From assembly GCA_038321865.1 (NCBI GenBank), contig JBBQFH010000015.1:1-64000 (forward strand): DNA of 64,000 bases. Reading direction: 5' to 3'. The translations under genes were made by a program, and so were the position numbers. Positions 1-55,179 of the stretch are shown here, one piece after another. A model generated the notes under the pieces. That model saw only the letters and a program-made list of their open reading frames with translations, made no database searches and had not been told where the DNA came from. This stretch comes from Gemmatimonadales bacterium. GTDB lineage: Bacteria; Gemmatimonadota; Gemmatimonadetes; Gemmatimonadales; GWC2-71-9. Every line of letters starts with the position of its first letter. Within the stretch, counting starts at the first letter, position 1.

Positions 1-2176
1 CACCGGCCAGATAGAGCAGGCCGGCCCGCTGCGCCAGACGCGGGTCGCCGTCGAGCTCGCGGAGTACGCGCCGGACGCCGGCGCGATCTCCCCGGTCGGC
101 CGAGATGACGCCGTCGTTGAACTGGCGGACCCAGTAATTGCCGCCGGCAAGCTCGATGGCCCGGCGGTGGGCGCGGTCGGCCGCGGGAAAATCATGGGCG
201 TCGCCTTCGATGAGCCCGAGGATATCGAAGGCCTCGTAAAACGTCGAGTCCACCGCGATCGCGCCGAGTGCCGCGGTCCGCGCGCCGGCGCTGTCGCCGC
301 TCGACCAGTAGCTCCACGCGAGGTCGCTGCGCCATTGGGCGGTGGTCGGCTCCAGGTCGATCAGGTGCTTCGCCGACTGGATTACCGCGCTGAACTGGCT
401 CGTTTCCCACCCGATCCAGCTGAACAGCGCTTCCGCCTGGGTCGATAGTGTCCGGTCCCGGCCCAGGCGGAACTGCTCCGCGGCCGCCGTGAAATTCCAG
501 TCCACGTGTACCAGGGCGGCGCCCAGCGCGAAGTAGGGATCGCCGAGCCGGTCGTCGAGCGCCATGGCCCGGTGCGCCGCCCGCTCGATCTCGGCTCGCG
601 CCGAGTCTCGGGGCGCGGTCTGGTAAATGGCGGCGTACGCGTTGGTGAGCGCGAGCGTCGCCCAGGCGGGCGCGAAGGTCGAGTCGATCGCGAGCGAGCG
701 CCGAAGATGATCCACGCTCCCGCGATAGCCCGCCTGGGTGCGCAGATTCGCCTGCTCCTGCCCAAGCAGATATTCGATGTAGGCCTTGGGATCGACGGGC
801 CGGGCCTCGCCGAGCCGGCGCTCCTGGTCGGGCGTCAGGCGGGCGCGGATGCCGCGCGCGATCTCGCCGGCCACGTCATGCTGGAGCGTCAGCACGTTCG
901 CCGCAGGGCGGGAAAAGGTGCGGGCCCAGAGATTCTCGCCGGTGCCGGGATCGGTGAGCTCCGCCGAGATCTGCACCTGGTCGCCCACGCGCAGCACCGC
1001 CCCCGTCACGACGGCATCGACGCCCAGGCGGCGGGCGATCTCGCCGACGGCGAGTGTGCTGCCGCGGTAGGCGGTCACCGCACCATGCCCCAGCACCCGG
1101 ATGCCGGCGTCGGTGAGCACGCCGATCAGCTCGCGGGTCATGCCATCGGCGAAGAAAAGCTGCGTCGAGTCGCCGGACTGGTTTTCCAGCGGGAGGACGG
1201 CGATGCGCTCGATCTTCGGAGCCGACCGCCGGAAGATGCCGCGTCCGCCGAACCAGGCGGCGGCGAGCAGGATTACGACGCCGGCAGCGATGAGGGCGGG
1301 ACGGCGGGCGGTGCGCCGCGGCACGGTCGCGACCGGGGCGGCGCCGGAGCTGAAGCCGGGAGACAGCGCCTGGACGAACTGCGCGGCGGGGTTGAAGCGA
1401 TCCGCCGGGTTCTTGGCCAGCGTGCGAGCCAGCGCGCCGGACACCTCCGCGGACACGGTGGGCCGCAGATTCGTGATCGGCGCCGGCTCGGCGACCATGT
1501 GCTGGCGGATCACGGCCTGCGGCGTGGGGCCGGTGAACGGCGGTTGCCCGCCGAGCATCTCGTACAGCACGCAGCCGAGGCTGTAGAGATCGCTCCGCCC
1601 GTCGATGTCGGCATCGCCGGCGGCCTGCTCGGGACTCATATAGACCGGCGTGCCGACCGACATGCCGGGCTCGGTCAACCGGCCCGCCCGCGCCGCGTTC
1701 AGGGCGCGGGCGATCCCGAAATCGGCAACGGCGGCGTGGCCGCCTTCGATCAGGATGTTTTCCGGCTTGATGTCGCGATGCACCACCCCGCGCGCGTGGG
1801 CGTATCCGAGGGCGTCCGCCACTTCGCGCGCGATCTGCAGGGCGTCGTCGATCGGCAGCTGCCGCTCGCGATCGAGCCGCTCCCGGAGCGATTCTCCTTC
1901 GACGTACGGCATTACGTAATAGAGGAACCCATCGGCTTCGCCCGAGTCGTAGAGCGGCAGAATATGCGGATGCCGCAGATTCGCGGTCGTCTCGATCTCC
2001 TGGAGGAAGCGATCGGCTCCGAGCGCGAGGGCCAGCTCCGGCTTGAGCACCTTGATGGCGACCTTGCGCCGATGCTTGAGGTCGTCGGCGAGATAGACCG
2101 TCGCCATCCCGCCCTTCCCGAGCTCCCGCTCGATGCGGTAGCGGTCGGCGAGCGCGGCGGTCAGGCGTTCGATCAC
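1..2176 (-). CDS. K1: Ser/Thr kinase-TM-TolB-N-like-TPR protein (3' end outside window)
   Basis: Own translation of minus strand: GTG at 2176 overlaps the K2 stop (GTGA). Motifs RYRIERELGKGGMATVYLA, HRDIKPEN, ADFG, then AVLPLENQSGDSTQLFFADGMT and TPR-like helices. No stop seen before position 1. Confidence 0.9.
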   Translation of the reverse strand, partial: MIERLTAALADRYRIERELGKGGMATVYLADDLKHRRKVAIKVLKPELALALGADRFLQEIETTANLRHPHILPLYDSGEADGFLYYVMPYVEGESLRERLDRERQLPIDDALQIAREVADALGYAHARGVVHRDIKPENILIEGGHAAVADFGIARALNAARAGRLTEPGMSVGTPVYMSPEQAAGDADIDGRSDLYSLGCVLYEMLGGQPPFTGPTPQAVIRQHMVAEPAPITNLRPTVSAEVSGALARTLAKNPADRFNPAAQFVQALSPGFSSGAAPVATVPRRTARRPALIAAGVVILLAAAWFGGRGIFRRSAPKIERIAVLPLENQSGDSTQLFFADGMTRELIGVLTDAGIRVLGHGAVTAYRGSTLAVGEIARRLGVDAVVTGAVLRVGDQVQISAELTDPGTGENLWARTFSRPAANVLTLQHDVAGEIARGIRARLTPDQERRLGEARPVDPKAYIEYLLGQEQANLRTQAGYRGSVDHLRRSLAIDSTFAPAWATLALTNAYAAIYQTAPRDSARAEIERAAHRAMALDDRLGDPYFALGAALVHVDWNFTAAAEQFRLGRDRTLSTQAEALFSWIGWETSQFSAVIQSAKHLIDLEPTTAQWRSDLAWSYWSSGDSAGARTAALGAIAVDSTFYEAFDILGLIEGDAHDFPAADRAHRRAIELAGGNYWVRQFNDGVISADRGDRAGVRRVLRELDGDPRLAQRAGLLYLAG

Positions 2177-4842
2177 TTCCCGAGCCCGGTGACGCCGGCC
2201 ACCCAGACGTCGGACTGAAAATCGCTCAGGGTGAAGTACAGCCAGCCGCCGTATTCCGCGGCGCCGAGTGAGGCGGTGCTGTGCGGTCGAGCCGGCTCGT
2301 CGAAGCGGAGGATGGGGTGCGACGCTCCGTCGGACAGGCGGACCGCGAGAAGCTGGCGGTTTCGGCTCATGGCGGCGCCGGCGCCCCGTCCGATCAGGTA
2401 GGCCGTCTGTCCGTCGCCCGACCTCACCATCCCCCCGCTCCACCCCGCGAACAGATCGCGCACGTTGATGCCGGGAGCGCTCAGCGGACGGAACGCTCCG
2501 CCGTCCACCGGCTGCACACCGAAGTGGCCGGTCGAATCGACGCCGACCAGCTGCGTTCCGCTGTCGGCCCACTCCAGGGCGAGCCTGCCGCCGGGCAGGC
2601 GGAGCGTGACAGGACTTCCCCAGCGACCCGCGCCATCCCGCGTCGCGACCTGAAGCGCCCATGGGGCGCTGCTGACCGGCCCGCCCGGAAGCTGCCACAC
2701 GATTCGATGGCCGTCAGGAGACCAGCTGGCATTTCTCTCATCGGGTACCAACCCGGGCGAGAGCCGGACCGGTCTCCCGCCCTCGGCCGGGATGATGAAC
2801 ACCCGGCGAAGTCCCTGCAGCACGGCGTGGTATGCGACCTCCTTCCCGTCGGGTGAAATCGACGGAACAAACGAAGGGTTCGAGTCGTGGGTGATCCGCT
2901 GGACCGGCCCCCCGCCGAGCGGCATCCGGTAGATCTGCTGCACGCCTTCGCGGTCCGAATCGAAGACCAGCCACTTCCCGTCGGCCGAAATCCGGAAGGC
3001 TTCGATGGTCTGGAGATCGTTCGTCACCGGGAGGGCGCCGGCGGTGGAGACCGACCCGCTCGCCGGCACCGGCGTCTTCCAGATGTTGGCGTGGTACGTC
3101 GCCACCGAGTACGCCAGCCGGGTGCCGTCGGCCGAGAGGGAGATCAGGGAGGGATTGAGCCCGGTGGTGACGCGTACCGGCTTCCCGTTTACGTGGCCTT
3201 CGCCGGTGAGATTGAGCTGATAGACGTCGCGCACCCCGGCGAGGGTCGCGACCATCAGCAGCCGCCGCGAATCCGGCGCCCAGGTCGGACTCATGCTGAT
3301 GCCGCCGGGCGCGGTCAGCTGCTGCGCCGCGCCGCCCCGCGCCGCCACGAGCATGATGGTGCTGGGCGCGATGTTGTAGGTCGTGAAATAGTAGGCGTTC
3401 CCCGAGACGAAGGCGATCCATTTTCCGTCGGGCGACCAGGCCGGCGAATGCGGTTGCAGCGCGCGTGCGAGCAACCGTGGCTGCTCGCGCTCCAGTCCGC
3501 CGACGAGCAGTGAATCACCGACGATGTAGGCCACCTGCCTGCCGTCCGGAGACCAGCTGGCGAACGACGCCGCCGGATCGATGACCGTCCCCTGTCCGCC
3601 GAGCGCGGGCTGGCTGGCGAGGCCGCCGGGAGAGCGAACCAGCAGCCGGTCGCCGCCGGGAGACCAGCCGACCGGCGCCTGGCCCCCGGCGATCTGCACC
3701 GCGTCGCCGCCGTCGGTGCGGCGCAGCTCGACGTGCGGTGCGCTGTCGGCGGGACCGAAGGCCATGTAGGCCACCGATTTCCCGTCGGGCGAGATGACGG
3801 GAGACTCCTCCAGGCCAGCGGCGCGGGTGAGCTGGGAGTTGGAAACCAGCACCGCTACCTCCGGCGGACGGCGCATGAGGAGCACGGCCGCCAGGGCAAA
3901 CGCAGCGACGCCGGCACCGGCAATCGCGTATGGCGCCCACCTGCGCGCGCGGCGGCGCGCCACGACCGGCGCGGTCTCGGTCGGCGTCAGCCCGCCGCTC
4001 GGTGTGGCCAGCGGCTCCAGCGCCGCGTGGAGCTCCGCCGCGGTCTGGAAGCGGTCGGCCGGGCGCTTGGCCAGGCAGCGCATCACCACCGACTCGACGG
4101 CTGAAGGAATCGCGGGGCGGCGCTTCGACACCGAGTCGGGCGCCTCGGTCACGTGGGCCGCCAGCACCTGCTGCGGCGTGCCGCCGGTGAACGGCGGCCG
4201 GCCGCTCAGCATCTCATACGCCATCACGCCGACCGAGTAGATGTCGGACCGGTGATCGACGTGCGGGTCGGCCGCGGCCTGCTCCGGCGACATGTAGGTC
4301 GGGGTACCCACCGCCACGCCCAGCGTCGTGATGGTATTGCGGCCGGTCGCTTCGCTGATCGCCTTGGCGACGCCGAAGTCGGTGACCAGCGCGTGTCGCC
4401 CGGACAGCATCACGTTGTCCGGCTTGATGTCGCGATGCACGACGCCGTGCGCGTGCGCTTCGACCAGGGCGTCCACCACCTCGGTCAGCAGGCGCACCGC
4501 CTCATGCACCGGCAGCTCGCCCTCGCGCGCGAGTCGCTCGCGAAGCGACTGGCCCTTGATGTAGGGCATGACGAAGAAGAGGAAGCCGTCGGCCTCACCG
4601 GAGTCGAGCAGCGGGAGAATGTGCGGGTGCTGCAGCTGGGCGGCGATCTTGATCTCACGCAGGAAGCGGCCGGAGCCGAGCGATGCGGAGAGCTCCTCGC
4701 GCAGGACCTTGATGGCGACTTCGCGATCGTGCTTCAGGTCGCGAGCGAGATAGACCGTGGCCATGCCGCCCTGGCCGAGCTCGCGCTCGATGCGGTAGCG
4801 GTCGGCGAGGGCGACTCCGAGGCGATCCGTGGCTGATGTCAT
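2173..4842 (-). CDS. K2: Ser/Thr kinase-TM-TolB/PD40 beta-propeller
   Basis: 889-aa ORF; GQGGMATV, VAIK, HRDIKPDN, DFG; hydrophobic span; repeated WSPDG motifs. Confidence 0.93.
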   Translation of the reverse strand: MTSATDRLGVALADRYRIERELGQGGMATVYLARDLKHDREVAIKVLREELSASLGSGRFLREIKIAAQLQHPHILPLLDSGEADGFLFFVMPYIKGQSLRERLAREGELPVHEAVRLLTEVVDALVEAHAHGVVHRDIKPDNVMLSGRHALVTDFGVAKAISEATGRNTITTLGVAVGTPTYMSPEQAAADPHVDHRSDIYSVGVMAYEMLSGRPPFTGGTPQQVLAAHVTEAPDSVSKRRPAIPSAVESVVMRCLAKRPADRFQTAAELHAALEPLATPSGGLTPTETAPVVARRRARRWAPYAIAGAGVAAFALAAVLLMRRPPEVAVLVSNSQLTRAAGLEESPVISPDGKSVAYMAFGPADSAPHVELRRTDGGDAVQIAGGQAPVGWSPGGDRLLVRSPGGLASQPALGGQGTVIDPAASFASWSPDGRQVAYIVGDSLLVGGLEREQPRLLARALQPHSPAWSPDGKWIAFVSGNAYYFTTYNIAPSTIMLVAARGGAAQQLTAPGGISMSPTWAPDSRRLLMVATLAGVRDVYQLNLTGEGHVNGKPVRVTTGLNPSLISLSADGTRLAYSVATYHANIWKTPVPASGSVSTAGALPVTNDLQTIEAFRISADGKWLVFDSDREGVQQIYRMPLGGGPVQRITHDSNPSFVPSISPDGKEVAYHAVLQGLRRVFIIPAEGGRPVRLSPGLVPDERNASWSPDGHRIVWQLPGGPVSSAPWALQVATRDGAGRWGSPVTLRLPGGRLALEWADSGTQLVGVDSTGHFGVQPVDGGAFRPLSAPGINVRDLFAGWSGGMVRSGDGQTAYLIGRGAGAAMSRNRQLLAVRLSDGASHPILRFDEPARPHSTASLGAAEYGGWLYFTLSDFQSDVWVAGVTGLGK

Positions 4843-7514
4843 CGCTCCATCAGTTCCACGACGGAGATGTCGCTTTGCCGGTCATTGACGGCGAAGAAGA
4901 GGCGCTTGCCGTCGGTGGTGAAGTCGATGCGATACGATGGATGCGAGAGGTCGTCCAATCTCGCGAGCAATCTCGGCTGGCCACCGTCGATGGAAAGCGA
5001 CCAGAACAGTGCGTGACCTTCCGGATCGCGGCTCCTGAAGAAGAGCGTGCGGCTGTCGGGGCCCCATTGCAATTCCACGGCTTGGGCATCGGCCAGGGAA
5101 CGTCGCGCGTAAAGCAGCCGGCCGTCACCTGAACCCGCGGGATAGAGCCACACACTGTCGGCGACGCTGGACCCACCGAAGCCGGCCCGCCTGGGGTTGG
5201 TCCTCAAGCGACCGTCGGGCGACCAACTCGACAACACGCCTTCTGTCGTCGAATCGACATGCCAGCTCCCGGCACTGTCCTGTGCAGCCACGCACTGCGT
5301 GGGGCCACTGCTGCCGCGACATCCCCACATAAGCGTTTTGCCGTCCGGCATCCACTCGGGCCAGATCCCGTAGTTGCCTTTGGCATTGACCTGCTGGATC
5401 GGGCCGCCACCGACCATTGGCTTGACGATGATGGTCCCTTTGGCGGTGCCTTCGGGATATGAATAGAACACCAGGCGCCTGCCATCCGGAGAGATCCGTC
5501 CACCGAACTCATTCGCCACGTCGTTCGTCAGCGGCTCGGCTTCGCGCTCCCCGAACGCCAGGCGCCAGATGTCGGAGTTTCCATTCCGGTCTGCATCGAA
5601 GATCAGGGCCTTGCCATCAGAAGTCACCTGCATGCTCTCGACCAGCTGATGGCCAAAGGTGACCTGCGTCGCCATCGCCGAGGTGGCGGTACCGGTGGAC
5701 AGGATCGGCACTGCCCAGATATTGCCCTGTGCGGTGTACACGGAGTAGGCAAGGCGACGGCCATCGTGCGAAAGTGAGATGGTCGCGGCGTTGAGCGCGG
5801 TTGTCAGCCGGTGCACGTCCCCGACCGCCCGACCGTCGCTGGCTATCTGGATGTAGTAGATGTCCCGTTGACCATCCCGATTCGAGACGAAGTAAAGGCG
5901 ACGGCCGTCGGGAGACCAGACGGGACTGGTGTTGAGTGAAATGCTATCGGTGACGGCAACGGGCGCGCCTCCTGCCGCCGGCGTGATGAAAATCCGGCTC
6001 GGACCAGTGTTTCCCATGTTCGACGCGACGACGCCAAAGTCCCGGGGAGTAGTGCAGGCGATGTGATCACCGCGGGGAGACCAGACGCACTCCTTGTATT
6101 GATGCGGGGCGCTGACGGTGCGTGTTTCGCCACTGGCAATCGTGTACGTCATGAGTGAATCACTGCGTACGAAGAGAACCCGTCGACCATCCGGCGACCA
6201 GCTGGCAGTGGTTACATGGCCTCGTGAGCTCAGGTCAGTGGCTCCGGGCGCACCATTGATCAGCGTAACCGCCGTTCCACCACCGAGTCCCGCCGCAACC
6301 GTGTCCACGCCACCGTCGGCAAGGAAGAGAATGCTGGCGCCGTTCGGCGACCATTGCGGCTCCTGTTGATCGGTGGTCGAATCCTTCGTCAGCGGTACTT
6401 CGCGGCCGCCTGCAACCGGTCGGAGAAAAACACGCACGTGAAGCGATGTTCCCGCGGCATAGGCCATGGTCTTGCCGTCGGGTGAGATTGCCGGCTGGAC
6501 TTCGAGTCCGTCGTCCGTCGTGACGTGCACGATGGCACCGGTTGTCACCGCTCTCTCGCGCTTCGAGCCGAAGATCAGCGCGCCCGCCACCACTCCGAGC
6601 GCTAGCCCCGCGGCAAGGGTAACCCGAACGGTGCGGGTGGGGCGTGCGACCCGACTGGTGACGCGATGTGACCGGGCCGGGCGCGCGTTGCCCCCGAGAG
6701 CATCCGCAAACTCCGCCGCCGTTGCAAACCGGTCCGCCGGCAGCTTGTTAAGTGCGGTCTGAACGGCCTCCGCGACGTGCTGCGGGATGGTCGCGCGGAG
6801 CGTCACGAGATCCTGCGGCTCTGCCGTCATGATCTTGGCAACGATGGCCTGCGCGGTCGGACCACTGAACGGCGGCTCACCGGAGAGCATCTCGTACGCA
6901 ACGCAACCCAGGGCGTACACATCACTCCGCGGCGTGAGCTCGCGTTCGCCCATGGCCTGCTCCGGCGACATGTAATGCGGCGTGCCAAGGGACATGCCGG
7001 TTTCGGTCATGCGGGTCCCGGCCTTGCTGACGGCCAGCGCGATGCCGAAATCCGCGACCATCGGGCGACCATCGTGCAGCAGGATATTCTCGGGCTTGAT
7101 ATCGCGATGGATCACGCCGTGCTGGTGCGCGTAGTGGAGGGCGCTGGCCAGGTCGGTCGCGATCCGCACCGCTTCGTCGATACCGAGCTGAATGTCGCGA
7201 TCGAGCTTCGAGCGGAGCGTCTCGCCGTCGATGAACGGCATGACGTAATAAAGGAAGGAGTCCGCGGTGCCGGAGTCGAAGAGCGGCAGGATGTGCGGAT
7301 GCTGCAGCGCCGCGGTGGTCGTGATCTCCTGGACGAATCGCTCGGCCCCAATAACCGCGGCGAGCTCCGGCTTGAGCACCTTCACGGCGACGCGCCGCTT
7401 GTGGCGGAGGTCTTCGGCGAGATAGACCGTCGCCATGCCGCCCTGCCCGAGCTCCCGCTCGATGCGGTAGCGGTCGGCGAGGGCCGCGGCGAGGCGTTCG
7501 AGGCCCGCGTTCAT
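4839..7514 (-). CDS. K3: Ser/Thr kinase-TM-TolB/PD40 beta-propeller
   Basis: ATG at 7514 (MNAGLERL) overlaps the K4 stop (ATGA); HRDIKPEN, DFG; WSPDG repeats. Confidence 0.93.
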   Translation of the reverse strand: MNAGLERLAAALADRYRIERELGQGGMATVYLAEDLRHKRRVAVKVLKPELAAVIGAERFVQEITTTAALQHPHILPLFDSGTADSFLYYVMPFIDGETLRSKLDRDIQLGIDEAVRIATDLASALHYAHQHGVIHRDIKPENILLHDGRPMVADFGIALAVSKAGTRMTETGMSLGTPHYMSPEQAMGERELTPRSDVYALGCVAYEMLSGEPPFSGPTAQAIVAKIMTAEPQDLVTLRATIPQHVAEAVQTALNKLPADRFATAAEFADALGGNARPARSHRVTSRVARPTRTVRVTLAAGLALGVVAGALIFGSKRERAVTTGAIVHVTTDDGLEVQPAISPDGKTMAYAAGTSLHVRVFLRPVAGGREVPLTKDSTTDQQEPQWSPNGASILFLADGGVDTVAAGLGGGTAVTLINGAPGATDLSSRGHVTTASWSPDGRRVLFVRSDSLMTYTIASGETRTVSAPHQYKECVWSPRGDHIACTTPRDFGVVASNMGNTGPSRIFITPAAGGAPVAVTDSISLNTSPVWSPDGRRLYFVSNRDGQRDIYYIQIASDGRAVGDVHRLTTALNAATISLSHDGRRLAYSVYTAQGNIWAVPILSTGTATSAMATQVTFGHQLVESMQVTSDGKALIFDADRNGNSDIWRLAFGEREAEPLTNDVANEFGGRISPDGRRLVFYSYPEGTAKGTIIVKPMVGGGPIQQVNAKGNYGIWPEWMPDGKTLMWGCRGSSGPTQCVAAQDSAGSWHVDSTTEGVLSSWSPDGRLRTNPRRAGFGGSSVADSVWLYPAGSGDGRLLYARRSLADAQAVELQWGPDSRTLFFRSRDPEGHALFWSLSIDGGQPRLLARLDDLSHPSYRIDFTTDGKRLFFAVNDRQSDISVVELMER

Positions 7515-10041: not shown

Positions 10042-10045
<4 letters not shown>
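7511..10045 (-). CDS. K4: Ser/Thr kinase-TM-beta-propeller
   Basis: ATG at 10045 (MSAERLAAAL) overlaps an upstream TGA; kinase motifs intact; WAPDG/WSPDG repeats. Confidence 0.92.
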
Positions 10046-13170
<3,125 letters not shown>

Positions 13171-19320: not shown

Positions 19321-19329
19321 CGCTCGCGA
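19321..19329 (+). repeat. Target-site duplication, left copy (CGCTCGCGA)
   Basis: Identical 9-mer at 24518-24526 directly outside the other element end. Confidence 0.95.
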
Positions 19330-19369
19330 GGTAGTGGCCCTATTTGATGTAACAGCCAAGCGCCCCCAC

Positions 19370-19399
19370 AAAAAGGCGCTGCGGGCTGCCCGCAGCGCC
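19370..19399 (-). terminator. Intrinsic terminator after the TA operon
   Basis: On the minus strand: GGCGCTGCGGG-cag-CCCGCAGCGCC (11-bp stem) followed by TTTTT. Confidence 0.8.
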
Positions 19400-19421
19400 T
19401 CCATCCGTCCGTTGCCCTCCC

Positions 19422-19730
19422 CTATGCCGCGTTCTTCGCGCTCCCTGCGTCCTCGACAGGCCGGGGGATCATGATGACCTTCACGATTTCGACCCTGTCG
19501 TCGTCGAACCGGTACGCAAGAAGAAGGGCGCCAGGCATACCCCGCCAAAGCTGAGACCGAACCACCCATAACCCATCAGTCCCCGCAATCTCGACGCCCG
19601 ACTTCGGATCCCGAGCAAGCCGCCAAATGAGCCCATCAAACAGATCTCGAAGGCGGAGATGACGCTTGGCCTCGGCGTCGATAAAATCAGACACACCACG
19701 AGCCTCAACGACCCCGCGCGCGAATGCCAT
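19422..19730 (-). CDS. Putative toxin partner of the Panacea antitoxin (possible RelE/ParE-like fold)
   Basis: ATG overlaps the antitoxin stop (TAATG); 102 aa (MAFARGVVEA...LLLAYRFDDDRVEIVKV); size and predicted beta-alpha-alpha-beta pattern resemble RelE/ParE. Confidence 0.6.
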   Translation of the reverse strand: MAFARGVVEARGVSDFIDAEAKRHLRLRDLFDGLIWRLARDPKSGVEIAGTDGLWVVRSQLWRGMPGALLLAYRFDDDRVEIVKVIMIPRPVEDAGSAKNAA

Positions 19731-20260: not shown

Positions 20261-20305
20261 CGGATCCTCCTCAGGTCCAGGGACATCCCGGATCTACCCA
20301 ACCAT

Positions 20306-20335
20306 AATGTACACGACCCGAATATTTCCCGTCAA
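20306..20335 (-). promoter_or_regulatory. Putative sigma70 promoter of the TA operon
   Basis: TTGACG-N18-TACATT on the minus strand. Confidence 0.5.
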
Positions 20336-36007: not shown

Positions 36008-36136
36008 AGGCTTCCCCGCCGATCTGCTTGCGCCCCGGCCGGACCGACCGCTAATTCCGGACTCGCCCATTCCCGACATTTGCGTCGTTCCCTGGCGGCT
36101 CCCGATGTCACCTGCACGACGGTCCGGTCCGGCCCC

Positions 36137-40489: not shown

Positions 40490-42859
40490 TCACTTGCCCG
40501 CCGCCGGCAGGATCCACCGGGTATCCAGCGCCTTGAAGCGGGGATCTTCGCGGACGGGATCGTAGATCGGGTCGCTCGGCGAGATCGGGTCGTGCTCGTC
40601 GTAGGACCGCTCGAACCAGTTGAAAAATTTATCCCGGTCGCCCAGGCCGAGATAGATCAGGGCGATGTACCCAGCCCGGACGAATCGCTCCCCTCGCGAC
40701 TGCTCGAGCAGTTTGCTCAGCGCCCGCTGCGCCTCGGGCCGCCGATTGCACATGCCGTAGAGGTAGCCGCGAGTCGACGCATCCTCCGGCGTGCTGGTCG
40801 TCACAGCCGAGATCTGTGCCAGTGCCGCTGCGCATCGTTTCTGGAGCACGTACACGTAGGCGAGCGAGTTGTGCGTAGGCGCGGCCGCCGGGCTCAACTC
40901 GAGCGTTCGCTCCATCTGCGTAGCGGCCGCGTCGTAGTTGTGCACGAACGAGTACATCGTGCCCAGCCGTAAGCTGATGATGACCGAGCGGGGTGACAAC
41001 CGAAGCGCCGTCTTCGCTTCAGTGATCGCCTGGGGAAACTCGTGACGAAACGCGTGGCTCCAGGCCAGAAAGAGATGGGTCTCGGCATAGGTCGAGTCGA
41101 GCGTAACGGCGCTGTCGAGCTGGGCCCGTCCGGCGACATCGTTCTTCTCGCCTTGCTGCAGAATGATAGCGAGCGAGGTATGCGCCTCGGCGCTCGTGGG
41201 ATCGAGCTCGAGCGCCCGGAGCACCGCGGCTCGGGCGAGCGGGAGGCCGTCGTTCGGGTCCAGGCAGCAGGTGAAGGACTGGAATACAAAAGTGTCTCCG
41301 CGGCCGGCCCATGCCTTGGCGTAGGAGGAATCTTGCCGGATCGCCTCGTCGAAGGCCTGCAGCGCCTCGTCGAGATGCAGCCGGCTCGCCAGGATCAGGC
41401 GGCCGCGGAAGTACGCCTCCTGCGCGCCGACGTCGGTGGTGCCGTGATTCACGACCAGCCGCCGCGTCTGCTCCGCCACCCGGCCCTGCAACGAGGTGAC
41501 GATGGCAAGCACGATCGAGTCCTGCAGTGCGAACGACAGCGACCCCCTGGCTTCGTAGTGCCCGGACCATTCCTTGCGCCCGCCGGCGGCATCGAGGAGT
41601 TGGGCGTCGATCCGGATGCTGTCGCCGGTGGCGGTGCGGCGGAGCGTGCCGGTCACCAGGCGCCGGACGTCGAGTGCCCGGCCGATCGAGTCGAGCGAGA
41701 CGCCGGTGCCCCGGAAGGAAAACGACGACGCCGGTGCGGCGATCCGAAGGCCCGGCACCTTCCGGAGCTCGGCCGCGAGCTCCGCGGCCAGCCCGCGACT
41801 GAGGACGCTGTCCGCGGCGACGGAACTCAAGTTGTCGAACGACAGCACGGCAAGGCCGCCGGCGCCGGTTGCGGAAGCGGCGGGTAACCGGCGGTGCGCG
41901 ATGCCATAGGCCGCCATGGCCCCGGCGCCGAGAATGACAGCGGCGATGAGCGCCAGCACACCGGCACGCGGACGGCTCCTGACGGGGACGGCGACGGCCG
42001 CCGATTCCGTGGTGGCCGGCTCGGTCATGGCGGTGGCCAGCGCGTCGGCGAAGGCGCGTGCCGTCGAAATCCGGTCCGCCGGCGCCTTTTCCAGTGATTT
42101 CCGGATGACCTGTTCGACGGCTCGGGTCACGCCGGGGCGGACGGTACAGATCGACGGCATCGGCTCGACGGCGCGCCGGGCGGCGATCGCCTGCATCGTG
42201 GGGCCGCGGAAGGGCGGCTCGCCCACGAGCAGCTCGTACATCACGCATCCGGCCGCGAACACATCGGATCGGCCGTCGATCACCGCTTCACATGCCGCCT
42301 GTTCCGGACTCATGTAGGCGGGCGTACCGACGGAGAAGCCGGTCTGCGTCAGCTTCTCATCGTCCGCCCCCGCGAGGACGCAGGCGATGCCGAAGTCAGC
42401 CACGAGGACTTGGCCGGCGGAAAGCAGGATATTCTCCGGCTTGATGTCGCGGTGCACCACGCCGTGCGAATGGGCGTATTCGAGCGCCGCGCAGACGTCG
42501 GTAACGATGCCTACCGCCGCATGCACCGGAAACTGTCCTTCGCGGTCCATGCGCGCGCGGAGCGACTCGCCGTCTACATAGGGCATGATGTAATAGAGGA
42601 GATCGCCGGCGGTGCCGGAGTCGTGGATGGCAAGAATGCGCGGGTGCGAGAGCCGCGCGGTGAGCTCGATCTCGCGGAGAAAGCGTTCGGGTCCGAGCGC
42701 GGAAGCGAGCTCCGGCCGCAGGACCTTGATGGCGACCGGCCGCCGGTGCTTGAGGTCCTGCGCCAGGTAGACGTAAGCCATCCCGCCCCGGCCCAGCTCG
42801 CGCCCGACGGTGTACCGGCCGGCGAGGGCTTGCTCCAGCAGTGCGGCGAGCTCAGTCAC
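40490..42859 (-). CDS. K11: Ser/Thr kinase-TM-TolB-N-like-TPR protein
   Basis: GTG ACT GAG CTC start; kinase motifs; LAVLSFDNLS; FTCCLDP; C-terminal VREDPRF. Confidence 0.92.
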   Translation of the reverse strand: MTELAALLEQALAGRYTVGRELGRGGMAYVYLAQDLKHRRPVAIKVLRPELASALGPERFLREIELTARLSHPRILAIHDSGTAGDLLYYIMPYVDGESLRARMDREGQFPVHAAVGIVTDVCAALEYAHSHGVVHRDIKPENILLSAGQVLVADFGIACVLAGADDEKLTQTGFSVGTPAYMSPEQAACEAVIDGRSDVFAAGCVMYELLVGEPPFRGPTMQAIAARRAVEPMPSICTVRPGVTRAVEQVIRKSLEKAPADRISTARAFADALATAMTEPATTESAAVAVPVRSRPRAGVLALIAAVILGAGAMAAYGIAHRRLPAASATGAGGLAVLSFDNLSSVAADSVLSRGLAAELAAELRKVPGLRIAAPASSFSFRGTGVSLDSIGRALDVRRLVTGTLRRTATGDSIRIDAQLLDAAGGRKEWSGHYEARGSLSFALQDSIVLAIVTSLQGRVAEQTRRLVVNHGTTDVGAQEAYFRGRLILASRLHLDEALQAFDEAIRQDSSYAKAWAGRGDTFVFQSFTCCLDPNDGLPLARAAVLRALELDPTSAEAHTSLAIILQQGEKNDVAGRAQLDSAVTLDSTYAETHLFLAWSHAFRHEFPQAITEAKTALRLSPRSVIISLRLGTMYSFVHNYDAAATQMERTLELSPAAAPTHNSLAYVYVLQKRCAAALAQISAVTTSTPEDASTRGYLYGMCNRRPEAQRALSKLLEQSRGERFVRAGYIALIYLGLGDRDKFFNWFERSYDEHDPISPSDPIYDPVREDPRFKALDTRWILPAAGK

Positions 42860-42873
42860 GATTACCTGCTGGA

Positions 42874-43438: not shown

Positions 43439-45816
43439 TCACATCACGTTGCGCACCCCCGGTGGCAGAATCCACCGGGCCTCCAGCGCCTTGAAGCGGG
43501 GATCTTCGCGCACGGGATCGTAGATCGGGTCCATCGGCGCGAGCGGGTCGTGCTCGTCGCAGGCCCGCTCGAACCAGCTGAAAAATTTGTCCCGGTCGCC
43601 CAGGCCCAGGTAGATCAAGGCCATATGCCCCGCGAGGACGAATCGTTCCCCCCGCGATTGGTCGAGCAGTTCGCTCAGCGCCCGCTGCGCCTCGGGCCGC
43701 CGATTGCACATGGCGTACACATAGCCGCGAGTCGACGCATCGCTCGGCGTGCTGGTTTTCACGGCCGAGATCTGCGCCAGCGCCGCTCCGCATCGCTTCT
43801 GGAGCACGTACACATAGGCGAGCATGTCGTGCGCAAACGCGGCCGCCGGGCTCAACTCGAGCGTTCGCTCCAGCTGCGCGGCGGCTCTATCGTAGTTGCG
43901 GGCAAACACGTACATCGAGCCCAGCCGCGCGCTGATGACGACCGACCGGGGAGACAGGCGGAGCGCCTGCTGCGCCTCGGCGATCGCCTGCGGAAATTGA
44001 TGGCGATGCGCGTGACTCCAGGCCAGGAACAGATGGGTGTCAGCGTAGCTCGAATCGAGCGCGAGCGCGGTGTCGAGCTGGGCCCGCGCCGCCACATCGT
44101 TCCGTTCCCCTGCTGCAGGATGATGGCAAGCGAGGTATGCGCCTCGGCGCTCGTGGGATCGAGCTCGAGCGCCCGGAGCACCGCGGCCTTGGCCAGGGGC
44201 AGGCCGTCGTTCGGCTCCAGACAGCAGAAGAAGGACATGAACGCGTAGACGTCCCCCCGACCGGCCCACGCCTTGGCATACGTCGAGTCACGCCGGATGG
44301 CTTCGTCGAACGACTTCAACGCTTCGTCGAGGTGCTCCCGGCTCGCCAGGATCAGGCGGCCGCGGAAGTACGCCTCCTGCGCGGCGACGTCCGTCGTGCC
44401 GTGATTCACGACCAGCCGCCGCGTCTGCTCCGCGACCCGGCCCTGCAACGAGGTGACGATGGCAAGCACGATCGAGTCCTGCAGCGCGAACGACAGCGCG
44501 CCCTTCGCTTCGTAGCGGCCGGTCCATTCCTGATTGCCGTTGGCGGCGTTGAGCAACTGGGCGTCGATCCGCAGGCTGTCGCCGGTGCTCGTCCGCCGGA
44601 GCGTACCGGTCACCAGGCGCCTGACGTCGAGCGCTCGCCCGATCGAGTCGAGCGAGATGGCGGTGCCTCGGAACGAGAACGCCGCCGCCGGGGCGGTCAC
44701 GCGGAGGCCCGGCACCTTCCGGAGCTCGGTCGCGAGCTCCGCGGCGAGTCCCCGGCTCAGCACGCTGTCGCCGGCGACGGCGCTGAGGTTGTCGAAGGCC
44801 AGCACGGCCAGCCCGCCATTCGACGCCGCGGATGCGGCAGCCCGACCGGATGAGGGCCGATGTGTCACGCTGTACGTCGTCACCGCGACGCCGCCGAGGA
44901 GAAGCGCGGCAAGTGCTGCCCCGATGCCGGCGCGCGAGCGGCGGCGCACCGCGGCCGGGTGCTCGCTCGTCGGCGGCTCCGCCGCGGCCTTCGTCAAGGC
45001 CTCAGCGAAGGCGCGCGCGGTCGGGAATCGATCGGCCGGCGCCTTCTCCAGCGCCTTCCGGACCGCCCGCTCGAGGGCCACCGGGACGCCACGGCGCACC
45101 ATGCAGATCGACGGCATCGGCTCGAGCGCCCGCCGGGCGGCGATCGCCTGGCTGCTGGGGCCGCGGAAGGGCGCCTCGCCGACCAGCATCTCGAACAGCA
45201 CGCATCCGAGCGCGAAGACGTCCGACCGGCCGTCGATGGCAGACTCCCCAGCCCCCTGCTCCGGGCTCATGTACGCCGGCGTGCCGATCGCGAGGCCGGT
45301 CTGCGTCAGCTTTTCGTCGTCGGCCGCCGAGAGCGTGCGGGCAATGCCGAAATCGGCGACGAGCACCTCGCCGTCCGCCAGCAGGATGTTCTCCGGCTTG
45401 ATATCGCGGTGCACCACGCCATGGCTGTGTGCGTACTCGAGCGCGGCGCAGATCGCGGCCGTCAGCGCGACCGCGTCGTCTACCGGCAGCTGTCGCTCGC
45501 GGTCCATGCGGGCGCGGAGCGACTCCCCGGCCACATAGGGCATGACGTAATAGAGGAGCTCTCCGGTGGTGCCGGAGTCGTGGATGGCGAGAATGCGGGG
45601 ATGGCTGAGGCGGGCGGTGAGCTCGATCTCGCGGAGAAACCGCTCGGCGCCGAGGGCGGCGGAGAGCTCCGGCCGGAGCACCTTGATGGCGACCGGACGG
45701 CGGTGCTTCAGATCCTGGGCGAGATAGACATAGGCCATCCCGCCCCGGCCGAGCTCACGCTCGAGCGTGTAGCGGCCGTCGAGGGAATGACCGAGTGCTG
45801 CAGCAATGTCGGTCAC
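43439..45816 (-). pseudogene. K12: paralogue of K11 with a -1 frameshift in a G run at 44107-44110
   Basis: K11 reads IILQQGEKNDV. Here the sequence is CAG CAG GGG AAC GG..., and adding one G restores QQGERNDV and joins ORFs 43852-45816 and 43439-44269. Confidence 0.82.
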
Positions 45817-49894: not shown

Positions 49895-52543
49895 TCATGG
49901 CCGCGCGGCCGCCGGGGTGCCGGCCCGGTGGAACAGTGCCGACCAGTGCTGCACGTAGGTCACGGCCAGCGCCGAGGCTGACTGGCGAACGATGTAGCGC
50001 TCGCCGTCGCCCACCACCGCGAAGCCGGTGCCCCCGTCGTCGAAGGTCGAGCGGCGCCAGGTCGGGATGGAGAAACGGGTCCGGGGCGTGGCCGAGCTGG
50101 TCGCCCCGGCGCCGACCGCGACATCCTGCACCCGCCCATCCGGCGTCACGAACAGAACCCGGCGGCCGCCGTCCACCCAGGCGGGCCAGCGCCCGCCTTC
50201 CAGCGACACCCGCAGCGGCAGCCCCGATGGCAGCGCCTGCAGGTACACCTCGGCGCGGCCGGTTTCGTCGGAGCTGTACGCAACCGCGCGGCCATCGGGC
50301 GAGATGTGCCCCTCCCAGACCCGGCCCGGCCGCACGATGTCGCGAGGTGGCGCGCTACCGTCGAGCGCCAGCAGCTCGAGCACCGTGTCGCGCCGCACCA
50401 GCAGGGAGTGCCCGTCGGCCGACCAGTCGAGCGGATACCGGCACATGCTGCTGCTCGTAGTCGAATCCTCCCGGACAATGCGCTCGGCGTCCGTGCGGAG
50501 ATCGCGCTCCATGATCCGGCAGGCGTTGAGCCCGACCAGCGCGAAGACCAGACGGGTGCCGTCCTCGCTGAACACTGGCCAGGTGGTGCCCAGTCCCACG
50601 CCGGCCGTCGAGAACGCCGAGTCACGGACGGGCAGCCTGGTCGCGCGGTTCGCATCGAGATCGTAGAGCCAGAGGCCGACGACGTTCCCGGCGACGGCGA
50701 CGACGGGACTCCCGGCTGGGCGCCGGCGCATGCCGACGGTCCAGGTCCCTTCGACCCGCACCGTATCCCTGAGCAGTCCGCTTCCATCGTAGACCAGGTA
50801 GGGCCGGTCCCGGCCGCCCATCAGGAACGCCATCGCGTCGCTCGACGACACCGCGAAGGTGGGAATCCCGGCCTGATTGCGCACCTCCGAGGCCAGCCGG
50901 ACCACTGGCCCCTCGAACTTCAGGGTGTGCAGGTCGAGTTGCTGCGCATCGAGCGCACGCGCATCCGTCCTGCCGGGAGCGACCAGGTATCCCGACGGCA
51001 CGATGGCAAAATCGGACGCCGGCATCGGAATGGAGTCGATCGTCTTCCCGTCGAGACCGGCGGCGATCAGCCCAAGCTGGCGGCCGCGTGAATAGATGAA
51101 GCGGCGGCCGTCCGGCAGGAATGCGGCCCTTGGTGCGGGCCAGTTGCCGCGCGCGACCACGCGCCGGCAGTCGCCGCCATCGGCGGGAACTATCGACACG
51201 CCCTCGCGGTGGCCGAACACGATGATACCCCTCGAACCCCATGAGCCGCTGGTCGCGCCGGTCACGGGACAGAGGCGCCGGATGTCACCGTTCTCGTCCG
51301 CGATGGAAAGAAACCCGCCGGCAAAGAAGCCAAGCGACCGGCCGTCCGGCGACCAGAATGGTGCGTCGGCTCCGGTGGTCTGCGGAACGGCTTCGGCGTC
51401 GAGGCGGTCGAGCCGCCTGATCCACAGCGTCCGCGAGCCGTTCGCGGCGGCGAAGACGAAGGCGAGCCGGCGGCCGTCCGGCGAGAGCGCCACGCTGCGC
51501 TGTTCGCCGAAGTTGCCGCCGGCCGGCGGGAGAATCGACGTCAGCGTGAGCGCAGCGTCCGCCGCTGCCGGCCGGCGCAGCGCCGCGGCCGCCCATCCCG
51601 CCGCCACGCCGGCGGCGCCCAGCGCGTCCCAGGCCGCGGCGCGCGTCCAGGAGCGTGCCGGCGCCGCGGGAGGTGGCAGGCGCCGTGACGCCGTGCCCCC
51701 GGAGGCCGGGGAAGGCGCGCGCAGCGCCGTGGCGAACTCCGCCGCGGTGGCGAACCGGTCGGCGGGCAGCTTCTCCAGGGCGCGGAGCACGGCGGCTTCG
51801 ACGGCCTCCGGCACCGCCTTACGCTGGGCCGCGAGGCCGCGCGGCTCCTCGGTGATCAGCCGCGCCACGATGGCCTGGACGCTCGGTCCGGTGAACGGCG
51901 GTTCTCCCACCAGCATCTCGTAGGTCACCGCGCCGAGCGCGTAGATGTCGCTCCTGGCGTCGATGGCCCGCTCACCCATCGCCTGTTCGGGCGACATGTA
52001 TTGCGGCGTGCCGAGGGACAGACCGGTCTGCGTCATCCGCTGGCCGGCAGCGGTCTGGACGGCGAGCGCGATCCCGAAGTCGGCCACCAGCGCGTGGCCG
52101 CCCTGGAGCAGGATGTTCTCCGGCTTGATGTCCCGGTGGATGATGCCGAGGCCGTGGGCGTAGCCCAGCGCGTCGGCCACCTCGCGGGCGACGAGGATCG
52201 CGTCGTCGATCGGCAGCTGCCGCTCGCGCTCGAGCCGCGCGCGCAGCGTCTCCCCGGTGACGAGCGGCATCACGTAGAAGAGGAGGCCGTCGGCGTCGCC
52301 CGAATCGAGCAGCGGCAGGATGTGCGGGTGCTGCAGGCGTGCGGTGGTGCGGATCTCGGACAAAAAGCGGTCGCCGCCGAGCGCGGCGCCGAGGTCGGGA
52401 TGCAGCACCTTGATCGCGACGTCGCGCTCGTGGCGGCGGTCGTGGGCGAGATAGACGGTGGCCATGCCGCCTTGGCCGAGCTCGCGATCGATGCGGTAGC
52501 GGTCGCTGAGGGCGGAGGTGAGCCGAATCAGGACGTCCGTCAC
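49895..52543 (-). CDS. K13: Ser/Thr kinase-TM-beta-propeller
   Basis: GTG start overlaps the K14 stop (GTGA); kinase motifs; SPDG repeats. Confidence 0.92.
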   Translation of the reverse strand: MTDVLIRLTSALSDRYRIDRELGQGGMATVYLAHDRRHERDVAIKVLHPDLGAALGGDRFLSEIRTTARLQHPHILPLLDSGDADGLLFYVMPLVTGETLRARLERERQLPIDDAILVAREVADALGYAHGLGIIHRDIKPENILLQGGHALVADFGIALAVQTAAGQRMTQTGLSLGTPQYMSPEQAMGERAIDARSDIYALGAVTYEMLVGEPPFTGPSVQAIVARLITEEPRGLAAQRKAVPEAVEAAVLRALEKLPADRFATAAEFATALRAPSPASGGTASRRLPPPAAPARSWTRAAAWDALGAAGVAAGWAAAALRRPAAADAALTLTSILPPAGGNFGEQRSVALSPDGRRLAFVFAAANGSRTLWIRRLDRLDAEAVPQTTGADAPFWSPDGRSLGFFAGGFLSIADENGDIRRLCPVTGATSGSWGSRGIIVFGHREGVSIVPADGGDCRRVVARGNWPAPRAAFLPDGRRFIYSRGRQLGLIAAGLDGKTIDSIPMPASDFAIVPSGYLVAPGRTDARALDAQQLDLHTLKFEGPVVRLASEVRNQAGIPTFAVSSSDAMAFLMGGRDRPYLVYDGSGLLRDTVRVEGTWTVGMRRRPAGSPVVAVAGNVVGLWLYDLDANRATRLPVRDSAFSTAGVGLGTTWPVFSEDGTRLVFALVGLNACRIMERDLRTDAERIVREDSTTSSSMCRYPLDWSADGHSLLVRRDTVLELLALDGSAPPRDIVRPGRVWEGHISPDGRAVAYSSDETGRAEVYLQALPSGLPLRVSLEGGRWPAWVDGGRRVLFVTPDGRVQDVAVGAGATSSATPRTRFSIPTWRRSTFDDGGTGFAVVGDGERYIVRQSASALAVTYVQHWSALFHRAGTPAAARP

Positions 52544-55179
52544 CTGGCGCCTCGCAACTTCTCCTCGACGTAGCGGGGGAAGTTGGTGATGACGTTCAGG
52601 TGCGTGGCGCGAATCGGCGGCACTCCCAGCAGCAGGAGGAAGCGGCCGTCGGGCCCGACGTCCCAGCTCGCCAGCGCCTGGTTGAACTGGCCCTCGAAGA
52701 TCAGGTGCGGCGGCGCCGGACTCTCGCCCGGCGCCGGCACGGGAACCGAGAACCACCGGGTGGCCGCGCGATAGATCAGGTTCTTCCCGTCTCGGCTCCA
52801 GCGCGCCTCATTGGTCCCGGCTGGTGAGTACTTGCGCCGGGCGCTGGCGTCCTTGCCATCCACCGATGCGATGTACCCGCCATTCACGTCGTCCCACGAT
52901 ACCATGCGGCCATCCGGAGAAAAACGGCACCAGTTGAGCCGGGCGTCCAGCCGGACCGAATCCGCGGCGGACGGCGCCCGCCAGATGAAGCCGTTCGGGC
53001 TGCACCTGGTCGTCCCGTCCGGCGACTCGTCCTGGATGCCAACCCCGGTGGTGTCAAGCGTCAGTGCCGCCGACGACGCATGAACGAGCGCGTTATCGGT
53101 GAAGCGCCGCACCGTAATGTCACGGTCGTGACGGATCCAGTTGAGGGGCTGGGCGGTGCCCGTGAAGGTCGCCGCGTCGGCGACGTGGCGGACCAGGTCG
53201 GCGACGATGAGCCTCGATCCCTTTTCAGGATCCGGAACCGAGTAGGCCAGCCGATGACCGTCACTCGAGAGCGCATAGCTCTCCACGATCGCCGGCGGGA
53301 GCGGCAGCGTGTCGCGCACCTTGCCGGTGGCGTCGACCCAGGCAAAGCGGCTCAGCGCTCCGTCGCCGCCGGCGGCCCATACCAGCGTGCCGCTGGCGCT
53401 GAGGGCGAGGTGCCCGGTCGCGGTAAAGGCTTCGACGCGGACGTTGGCCAGAATAGGCTTGGGGTTCGCCAGCAGCCTGGCGCTGGCGAAATCGAACGGC
53501 GCCGCATACATGGTGCTGTCGCGCAGGAAAACGAGATAGTGGCCGGCCACCACCATCGGTTGCGCCCCCCGCACGAAGGCGTCCGGCGCGATCGTGTCGG
53601 TCGCACCCGGGGCCGTGATGCTGCGGGTGGTTCCCGTTCTGGCGTCAACCAGCTCGATCGCGGAGGTTCGCTGATTGGCGCCGACCAGGGCGTTGGGCCT
53701 GCCGGGAATCGCCGCCAGCTGGCTCACCAGACAGGTGGCCGCGGGGAGCCTGGCGAGCTCGCCGCCGGTCGCGGCGACGGCGGCCGGGCACCCGATGTAC
53801 CTCCCGGCGTAGAGGCGATCGTCATCGCTCCACGTCAGGTAGGTCAGCTGACCACTCGCGACCCGCGTCACGATGCCGTCGGCGAACGTCAGCCGGCGCA
53901 CCTGGGTGTCGACGACGAAGGCCGCCGAAAGCCCATCCGGGGAAAGCGTCGGGAGGACGGCCCCGCTGGTGTTGGGAAGCGGAGTGACCGTGCCATTGTC
54001 GGTGCGCACCAGGAGCAAGCGGGTTCCCGCCTGGTTCCGGGTGCCGTACACCACCGTCTTGCCATCGGCCGAAATATCGAGCGACCGGAGCGCCTCATCG
54101 TAGATCCAGCGACCGGCGATGAGAGGGGCAGAGTCCGGCAACGCGATCGACCAGAATCTCGGCTCGGCGCTGGCGGCGGCGGATGCCGCAGCCGATCGAG
54201 CATTCAGGACCGCGGCGGATGCGACGCCGAGCAGCACCAGGCCGACCGCCGCCGCCGCATAGAACCGGCGCTGCCACACCCGCCCGCCCGCGCTCGCCTC
54301 CGCCGCCGCCGCTCCCGACGTGTGGACCGAGAATGCGGGATTCCCCAGTGCCTCGCCAAAGGCCCTGGCACTCTCGAAGCGGTCGGCCGGCAGCTTCTCC
54401 AGTGATTTCGCCACCGCGGCCGCCACGTTCGGCGGCACCGATTTCCGAAGCGTCGTCACCGGGGCCACCGGCTCGACGATGATCTTCATGATGATCTGCT
54501 GCGCCGAGGCACCCGTGTGCGGCGGGGTGCCGCTGAGCATCTCGTAGAGCACGCTGCCGAGCGAGTACACGTCGCTCCGGGCGGTGATCTCCTTTTCGGC
54601 GGTCGCCTGCTCCGGGGACATGTAGTGCGGCGTCCCGAGCGACATGCCGGTTTCCGTCATGCGGCCACCGGCGGCGGCCGAGAGCGCCAGCGCGATCCCG
54701 AAATCCGCCACCATCGGGCGGCCATCGTGGAGCAGGATGTTCTCGGGTTTGATGTCGCGGTGGATCACCCCGTGCTGGTGCGCGTAGTGGAGCGCGCTGG
54801 CCACGTCGGTCGCGATGCGTACCGCTGCGTCGATGCCGAGCTGGGTGTCGCGGTCGAGCCTGCCGCGCAGGGTCTCGCCGTCGATGAACGGCATCACGTA
54901 ATAGAGGAACCCGTCGGCGGTCCCGGAATCGAACAGCGGGAGAATGTGCGGGTGCTGCAGGGCTGCGGTGGTGGTGATTTCCTGGATGAACCGCTCGGCC
55001 CCGAGGACGGCGGCGAGCTCGGGCTTCAGCACCTTGAGGGCGACCCGGCGTCGGTGCCGGAGATCCTCGGCGAGGTAGACCGTGGCCATGCCGCCCTGGC
55101 CGAGCTCATGCTCGATGCGGTAGCGGTCGGCGAGGGCGGCGGTGAGGCGTTCGCGAAAGGGATTGTGGGGGGAATCCAT
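52540..55179 (-). CDS. K14: Ser/Thr kinase-TM-beta-propeller
   Basis: 879-aa ORF; kinase domain closest to K3. Confidence 0.92.
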   Translation of the reverse strand: MDSPHNPFRERLTAALADRYRIEHELGQGGMATVYLAEDLRHRRRVALKVLKPELAAVLGAERFIQEITTTAALQHPHILPLFDSGTADGFLYYVMPFIDGETLRGRLDRDTQLGIDAAVRIATDVASALHYAHQHGVIHRDIKPENILLHDGRPMVADFGIALALSAAAGGRMTETGMSLGTPHYMSPEQATAEKEITARSDVYSLGSVLYEMLSGTPPHTGASAQQIIMKIIVEPVAPVTTLRKSVPPNVAAAVAKSLEKLPADRFESARAFGEALGNPAFSVHTSGAAAAEASAGGRVWQRRFYAAAAVGLVLLGVASAAVLNARSAAASAAASAEPRFWSIALPDSAPLIAGRWIYDEALRSLDISADGKTVVYGTRNQAGTRLLLVRTDNGTVTPLPNTSGAVLPTLSPDGLSAAFVVDTQVRRLTFADGIVTRVASGQLTYLTWSDDDRLYAGRYIGCPAAVAATGGELARLPAATCLVSQLAAIPGRPNALVGANQRTSAIELVDARTGTTRSITAPGATDTIAPDAFVRGAQPMVVAGHYLVFLRDSTMYAAPFDFASARLLANPKPILANVRVEAFTATGHLALSASGTLVWAAGGDGALSRFAWVDATGKVRDTLPLPPAIVESYALSSDGHRLAYSVPDPEKGSRLIVADLVRHVADAATFTGTAQPLNWIRHDRDITVRRFTDNALVHASSAALTLDTTGVGIQDESPDGTTRCSPNGFIWRAPSAADSVRLDARLNWCRFSPDGRMVSWDDVNGGYIASVDGKDASARRKYSPAGTNEARWSRDGKNLIYRAATRWFSVPVPAPGESPAPPHLIFEGQFNQALASWDVGPDGRFLLLLGVPPIRATHLNVITNFPRYVEEKLRGAR

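Follow-up and report, generated by a model that had tools for sequence, protein, structure and literature searches.

Kinase and sensor domains with differing histories in tandem transmembrane kinase arrays of Gemmatimonadales

Tandem kinase arrays in a Gemmatimonadales bacterium and its relatives contain kinases, kinase halves, sensors and gene orders that differ in history, and general homologous recombination through the conserved kinase domain is the likely agent. A sequence-only reading of this DNA had proposed that recombination in or just after the kinase builds new kinase-sensor combinations without a dedicated recombinase. The observation behind this proposal is confirmed, and the interpretation is supported in part: kinase and sensor histories are incongruent, and breakpoints lie in or just beyond the kinase, although most pairings are old and inherited. 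Beyond what had been proposed, changes of gene order and conversion of the kinase only occur as well.

The analysed window is a stretch of 64,000 nucleotides from contig C15 (JBBQFH010000015.1) of the source genome (G000, GCA_038321865.1), a 3.4 Mb metagenome bin of 139 contigs that is 90% complete. The relatives compared with it carry the Gemmatimonadales label from their sources.

Results

Fourteen transmembrane kinase genes in the window

The window holds 14 kinase-TM-sensor genes (K1-K14) with a C-terminal PD40 propeller or TPR sensor and one PP2C phosphatase gene. Within the whole bin we count 88 kinase-hit ORFs, 73 of them with a complete domain and 56 in the main family, many standing in arrays. 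All 14 window kinases match Pfam Pkinase, and 12 of the 13 complete ones display all six catalytic patterns (Gly loop, Lys, HRD, DFG, P+1/APE-like, and subdomain IX Asp), while K10 departs from one pattern at an adjacent residue and retains the Lys. A hydrophobic stretch follows 14-28 residues past the kinase in all 14 genes (weak in K4 and K13). By these motifs and the membrane helix, the window genes are Hanks-type transmembrane Ser/Thr kinases, for which control by a ligand is predicted and whose sensor domains are presumably periplasmic/outer. Neighbouring kinase genes are chained through 4-base stop/start overlaps.

1-2176 (-): K1, kinase-TM-TPR-class sensor, truncated at the window edge; GTG start overlapping the stop of K2
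2173-4842 (-): K2, kinase-TM-PD40 propeller; pairing retained in the related genome G005 (kinase 94%, sensor 68%)
4839-7514 (-): K3, chimeric kinase (K14-type to DFG, other type beyond), TM helix, all-beta PD40 sensor
7030-7060 (-): putative K3 crossover zone, DFG block, ahead of the activation loop
7511-10045 (-): K4, kinase-TM-propeller; pairing retained in G005 and G003
10279-13170 (-): K5, kinase-TM-TPR sensor; start approximate
13810-16551 (-): K6, kinase-TM-propeller
15867-16407 (-): K6/K8 tract, K6 side, kinase codons 29-209, synonymous identity 0.88
17082-19334 (+): K7, first part, kinase-TM-TPR sensor, broken by an insertion element
24511-25050 (+): K7, sensor remainder beyond the insertion element
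28204-30861 (-): K8, kinase-TM-propeller
30180-30720 (-): K6/K8 tract, K8 side, in common with K6
33048-36007 (+): K9, kinase-TM-propeller, frameshift ~33940; bounds are those of the ORF, the kinase starts ~33410
36080-38470 (+): K10, TPR sensor, kinase grouped amid propeller-bearing kinases
40490-42860 (-): K11, kinase-TM-TPR; start approximate
43460-45816 (-): K12, kinase-TM-TPR, frameshift ~44110; ordinary paralogue of K11 and of one contig C50 gene
48992-49849 (-): PP2C-type Ser/Thr phosphatase, directly after K13
49895-52543 (-): K13, kinase 90-92% identical to kinases with 23-25% identical sensors
52540-55179 (-): K14, kinase-TM-propeller; a 64% identical sensor mate on C50 is joined to another kinase type

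The frameshifts in K9 (kinase, ~33940) and K12 (TPR region, ~44110) are real or sequencing errors, and two-frame kinase genes are seen on other contigs too. The K5 ORF ends ~230 bases short of the K4 start (10045-10280); the gap appears coding up to a stop that overlaps the K4 ATG, and K5 may be frameshifted near its end. K7 is split by a 5,188-base IS1-family element (19330-24517), which has terminal inverted repeats agreeing at 17 of 18 positions, is bounded by a 9-base target duplication and is present as a single copy in the bin. Its cargo comprises an IS1-type transposase, a SocA/Panacea antitoxin-like gene, a P63C gene, a D12-class adenine methyltransferase and an EcoRI-like endonuclease. 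Hairpin repeats beginning GTCATTCCGAGC (26815-28050, 33125-33230), which we take to be akin to CGTC-type repeats, flank a small GIY-YIG gene (27359-27778), and similar arms are present on C25 and C36. On the far side of the window, a neutral/alkaline ceramidase with an unannotated N-terminal domain is encoded at 57082-61905 (-), and the gene upstream of it contains two repeats of apparently the same domain (motif CCNP.DL) without a Pfam match. Further, a BTAD transcriptional activator at 61972-63999 (+) has the layout of the kinase genes, comprising a membrane helix plus an outer region that is TPR-like, and possibly represents the sensor type of the kinase arrays on another output domain.

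Kinase and sensor phylogenies are incongruent

For comparison, the arrays of the related genomes G005, G003 and G004 were fetched in part, giving 49, 21 and 14 complete kinases respectively, against 70 matches in G005; a further 15 genomes contributed single loci to the tree set, and quick trees were used. Separate kinase and sensor phylogenies, one of the checks that the sequence-only reading had suggested, are incongruent far beyond a split-half control. In a set of 23 genes sharing a propeller class, the sensor tree is rejected on the kinase alignment, at a cost of 383 log-likelihood units, and so is the kinase tree on the sensor alignment, at a cost of 173 (RF 24/40). With half alignments, the same-domain control costs 16-37 log-likelihood units, compared with 131-223 for the cross-domain trees; since the same-domain controls also fall at p-AU <0.05, only the size of this gap counts as evidence.

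TPR and propeller sensors replace one another at least 9 times across the quick tree of 156 kinases, of which 147 are labelled, whereas shuffled labels give a mean of 49 switches and a minimum of 38. The sensor class is thus mostly inherited with the kinase, yet has been swapped repeatedly. One propeller gene of G005, for instance, has a kinase 90-93% identical to a clade of TPR kinases. Among pairs with kinases 90-95% alike (144 genes), the sensors are at least 60% identical in 19 and below 40% in 9, with none between, and in another genus (44 genes) all 12 pairs with kinases at least 90% identical have sensors below 40%. Moreover, the share of genes whose best-matching kinase window is that of their sensor mate climbs from 0.47 to 0.75 along the kinase (83 genes), a gradient whose first window is also the most conserved, so that its resolution is lowered.

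All motifs quoted for K1-K14 in the sequence-only reading were found in the sequence, and their evidential weight is uneven. K2 and K5, said to share a kinase type despite different sensors, do share motifs and a deep clade, but their identity is only 59%, and K5 is no more than the 11th-closest relative of K2 in the genome; a better case is a TPR-bearing kinase on C50 that is 83% identical to K2. The likeness of the K2 and K3 propellers stands as membership in the same broad class at 32% identity, with K15 just beyond the window slightly closer (35%). K9, to whose sensor start that of K14 had been likened, is the nearest in-window sensor, but at 30% identity, compared with the 64% of the real mate on C50. 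The kinase of this C50 gene is of a different type and matches the two halves of K14 at 68% and 49% identity. Finally, the K3 kinase, described as closest to K14, is 79% identical to it over the whole domain, but the relation holds for half of it, with 92% identity over the first 145 columns and 61% after, a breakpoint within the kinase that the sequence-only reading had missed. The K2/K5 and K14/K9 examples are weak, and K3/K14 is the strongest, for half of the kinase only.

Breakpoints and tracts within the kinase

Breakpoint detection, likewise suggested beforehand, places breaks inside the kinase by both a permutation scan and triplet tests. The scan (200 permutations, no correction) flags 11 of the 156 kinases at the floor of p 0.005, with 0.8 expected. 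In K3, triplet tests yield p<1e-4 for protein and DNA, and the same holds for two chimeras on other contigs. The N-half of K3 is sister to K14 (SH-aLRT 97), while a C-half sisterhood to K14 is rejected (p-AU 0.0003, two models). Two weaker tests leave a placement free of recombination unrejected, one for K3 as sister of the whole K14 clade in the C-half (p-AU 0.38), the other for an N-half in which the K14 clade excludes K3 (p-AU 0.10-0.11). The N-lobe motif of K3 is present in none of the 19 relatives that share its sensor type, and a scan of genomes for the K3 sensor returned one locus.

The structure model of K3 (pLDDT 86) consists of a PknB-like kinase, a loose linker, a helix at 298-316 and an all-beta region; the Pfam PD40 matches and 40 predicted strands point to a sensor built of two propellers. 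At 4-fold sites the K3 sensor has a GC content of 0.75, the lowest of 62 sensors (next 0.83, median 0.89), against 0.94 in the N-part and 0.83 in the C-lobe. The GC3 profile, suggested as a third check, thereby agrees in the atypically low GC of the K3 sensor but not in position: the best change point is codon 235, off the breakpoint, and larger steps occur in 8 of 56 genes. K3 is likely a foreign C-lobe and sensor imported onto a resident-type N-part, a reading for which the GC is suggestive only, since its change point comes later than the breakpoint.

Two candidate sources of the K3 N-half were rejected. K14 as a direct donor conflicts with a synonymous identity of 62-77%, which is near background. 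Inheritance from the gene formerly at the position of K3 conflicts with the G005 gene after the K4 orthologue, which belongs to the K14 clade and is 81% identical, compared with 92% for K14. A search for an effect of the upstream position on the kinase N-lobe found no general one.

K6 and K8 have a 540-bp tract in common with 88% synonymous identity, while their sensors are 39% identical. The tract scores 27.7, compared with a null maximum of 16.4 in 20,000 draws. A like tract exists in G102, a genome of 4 contigs, where codons 78-186 have a synonymous identity of 0.93 (score 26.4) and the sensors are 34% identical.

Whole genes change neighbours while pairings persist

Between G000 and G005 we identified 18 sensor orthologues, 16 of them with a complete kinase, and 13 of these 16 keep their kinase at 86% identity or more. 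Neighbour pairs, in contrast, are still adjacent in none of the 4 testable cases in G005 and none of the 3 in G004. Orthologous kinases of G000 and G005 vary in synonymous identity from ~0.65 to 0.89, a spread which suggests that whole genes were shared between the two species at different times.

The opening codons of a gene are often akin to those found behind the same upstream gene in other places. An M[NS]AG leader follows the K4 orthologues in three genomes, each time on a different downstream gene. Linkage of the leader to the upstream gene exceeds the background (p 3.5e-4, 33 pairs; p 6e-6, 21 pairs, with a second metric). Against the gene's own orthologue it is not significant (p 0.23, or p 0.068 with the second metric, which was chosen afterwards), and the pairs are not independent. 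Linkage extending into the kinase is absent, with 1 of 7 windows at p 0.037. The pattern fits crossovers in a shared 5' block, without proving them. K4 relatives were not encountered by scanning metagenome contigs.

A further genome, G033, carries one array in three versions with identical gene order. The versions are mosaic in blocks of 64-100% identity, with a single switch falling within a kinase, and may represent strains binned together or mosaics created during assembly. Read by eye, the versions carry differing passengers between the same two kinase genes (L103:8600-9560, L108:17450-18000, L105:5750-5870), which are a PIN-type toxin-antitoxin-like small gene pair, a PP2C phosphatase-like piece, or almost nothing. 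Additionally, some last array genes (at the ends of L004 and L005, and the C35 gene near 20297) have an apparent decayed kinase start behind them.

Exchange is slow

Paralogous kinases have a median 4-fold identity of 0.53, and their longest exact shared run is 80 bases. Owing to this synonymous near-saturation, few events are recent, most are old and rare, and donors cannot be named. Together with the 13 of 16 kept pairings, it points to recombination over evolutionary time, not to a demonstrated population switch, and leads us to reject fast programmed switching as the main picture.

Discussion

Proposed exchange through a shared kinase handle

We propose that the conserved 780-base kinase region serves as a shared handle for homologous recombination, in three modes. 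First, one crossover at the shared 5' block would move a whole gene while its first codons stay with the upstream gene, so that the 4-base stop/start overlap would survive. Second, a crossover in or just after the kinase would create a new kinase-sensor pairing or a chimeric kinase, and the recombinants would be in frame because both partners are aligned kinases. Third, two crossovers within the kinase would convert the kinase and leave the sensor. Some incoming pieces would likely be foreign DNA, as for the C-lobe and sensor of K3 with their atypical codon GC. General homologous recombination would be the simplest agent of these steps and RecA, which is present in G000, their likely catalyst. 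Events are rare, with most pairings outlasting species divergence and purifying selection keeping the kinase handle similar.

New pairings might instead arise mainly by non-homologous joining in the linker or TM helix, through microhomology or transposition, with homologous recombination only converting kinases. Such joints would match the several swap pairs that stay alike throughout the kinase and lose their likeness in the linker or TM helix, a relic behind one of the C50 genes with the look of a deletion joint, and the IS element inside K7. We nevertheless consider this explanation unlikely: the three chimeras have their breakpoints inside the kinase, the IS in K7 broke the gene and created no fusion, and the linker after K2-clade kinases is common to TPR and propeller members and hence usable as homology itself.

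It is less likely still that no exchange took place, and that kinases under strong purifying selection next to fast and unevenly evolving sensors only look shuffled. Selection on the kinase is indeed strong, as identity at 4-fold sites drops to 0.63-0.70 between kinases whose proteins are 92-97% alike; the sensors of the three strain-like G033 array versions differ more than their kinases, and the two K3 placements left standing above would be accommodated. However, TPR and propeller sensors have no alignable similarity, yet alternate within kinase clades, and the K6/K8 and G102 tracts are visible at synonymous sites. Moreover, conservation is sometimes higher in the sensor than in the kinase. 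Searching proteins with K3 returned 22 close relatives, of which 19 with a complete kinase were kept and 3 dropped. In the resulting group of 20 proteins, sensor and kinase identity are uncorrelated (Spearman 0.11), so that fast sensor evolution alone fails. The sensors are more alike than the kinases in 37 of 190 pairs, in one pair at 85% compared with 62%. An explanation without exchange is thus largely refuted already.

A dedicated system, be it a site-specific recombinase or the GIY-YIG nuclease together with the hairpins, has a slim chance of driving the rearrangements. G000 encodes 4 tyrosine recombinases and 1 serine recombinase above the cut-off, one tyrosine recombinase lying ~2 kb from a kinase gene on C21, and the window holds the GIY-YIG gene together with 6 of the 13 hairpin-arm matches of the genome. 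This enrichment is circular, since the hairpin pattern was derived from the window. We rejected the hairpins as candidates, as no arm lies at the K3 junction or at the ends of the K6/K8 tract. In this 90% complete genome no recombinase was found on C15, which bears out the proposal of an exchange without a dedicated one as far as this contig is concerned, and reverse transcriptase PF00078, which a diversity-generating retroelement would require, was not found in the incomplete G000. Of 32 short-range inverted repeats, not one among the 25 longest is met again at gene borders, and breakpoints are scattered along the kinase rather than fixed.

That the mosaics are assembly chimeras between paralogues is scarcely credible: it would suit a 139-contig bin, the frameshifts in K9 and K12 and a gap at 7320-7401 in K3 among the short contigs of run X1, but a 156-base contig of this run, which may be the source sample, bridges the K3 junction with zero differences, positions 6500-7272 share no identical stretch of at least 31 bases with other parts of the genome (80 being the maximum anywhere in the window), K3 and K14 differ at many synonymous sites, and the same pattern recurs in other genomes, one of them with 4 contigs. 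The K3 junction is uncovered in run X2, and read placement at 88% was dominated by kinases of other organisms.

Homologous recombination through the kinase might be part of something larger, although we hold this extension to be rather doubtful. The arrays would then form an integrase-free receptor capture system across Gemmatimonadales populations, with the kinase start and core as universal landing pads. Foreign sensor modules and whole genes would come in, be lost and change order while staying in frame and translationally coupled, and DFG-block swaps would exchange the N-lobe and so rewire the mutual activation of receptors.

Kinases closely related to that of K6 (E 1e-90 or better) occur in 40 of the 60 other genomes that were sampled across the phylum; by family, they are found in 29/30, 10/10 and 1/1 genomes of three families and in 0/19 of six others. 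If the recombination reading is true, the arrays offer an uncomplicated means of renewing a large set of receptors.

Comparison with known systems

Integron cassette arrays and shufflons are head-to-tail arrays of variable order in which passenger genes are gained and lost. Order and passengers vary likewise in the kinase arrays; here, however, there is no integrase on the contig and no recurring site was found, and breakpoints vary and fall inside coding sequence.

Mycobacterium tuberculosis has a propeller-bearing kinase, PknD. The best sequence and fold matches of the array kinases are PknB and PknA of the same species (PDB 3f69, 1mru, 6i2p; 36-41% identity), which are alike in their kinase-linker-TM-outer domain layout. 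Five kinases tested against NF033483 (PknB/Stk1 PASTA) scored 251-317 bits, below the cut-off of 450, and no PASTA match was found among the window kinases. Unlike PknB/Stk1 PASTA kinases, the arrays have PD40 or TPR sensors and dozens of close paralogues. In the model for PknB, according to the accessible text of PMC13434768, N-lobe dimers activate the kinase while C-lobe contacts permit trans-phosphorylation. On this model, a swap at the DFG block would be predicted to change the partners of a kinase apart from its output, and natural chimeras such as K3 are ready-made tests of partner and substrate choice in bacterial receptor kinases.

Published work on these arrays or their recombination was not found in a search that lay outside most subscription journals and supplements. 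The accessible main text of the 2023 ecogenomic survey of the phylum (PMC10581226) has no passage on these kinases, its two matches to 'kinase' being unrelated.

Two described systems come close. Expanded histidine kinase families gain new sensor combinations by domain shuffling, by a mechanism called unclear in the accessible parts of Alm, Huang and Arkin (2006, PMC1630713), which point out that transposons would break the frame. Both cases are expanded signalling families with new sensor combinations, but the paralogues in that account are scattered over the genome, whereas ours are Hanks-type Ser/Thr kinases with C-terminal sensors, tandem arrays and mappable crossovers or tracts. To the question left there, how new sensors arrive in frame, the arrays offer a testable answer in which the catalytic domain is the homology. 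In Rhs orphan-toxin displacement in Salmonella, as far as the accessible text of Koskiniemi et al. (2014, PMC3967940) describes it, recombination via a conserved part installs a new variable C-terminus. A conserved core with an exchanged C-terminal module is also present in the arrays. Rhs loci, in contrast, use silent orphan fragments with immunity genes, and their displacement was seen in evolving populations; in the arrays the partners are whole genes and the variable part is a predicted sensor. The window contains no silent orphan modules with immunity genes, its array members being whole genes with their own kinase. Domain shuffling is known for histidine kinases and tip exchange for Rhs; the shuffling in the arrays described here is real, well supported and slow.
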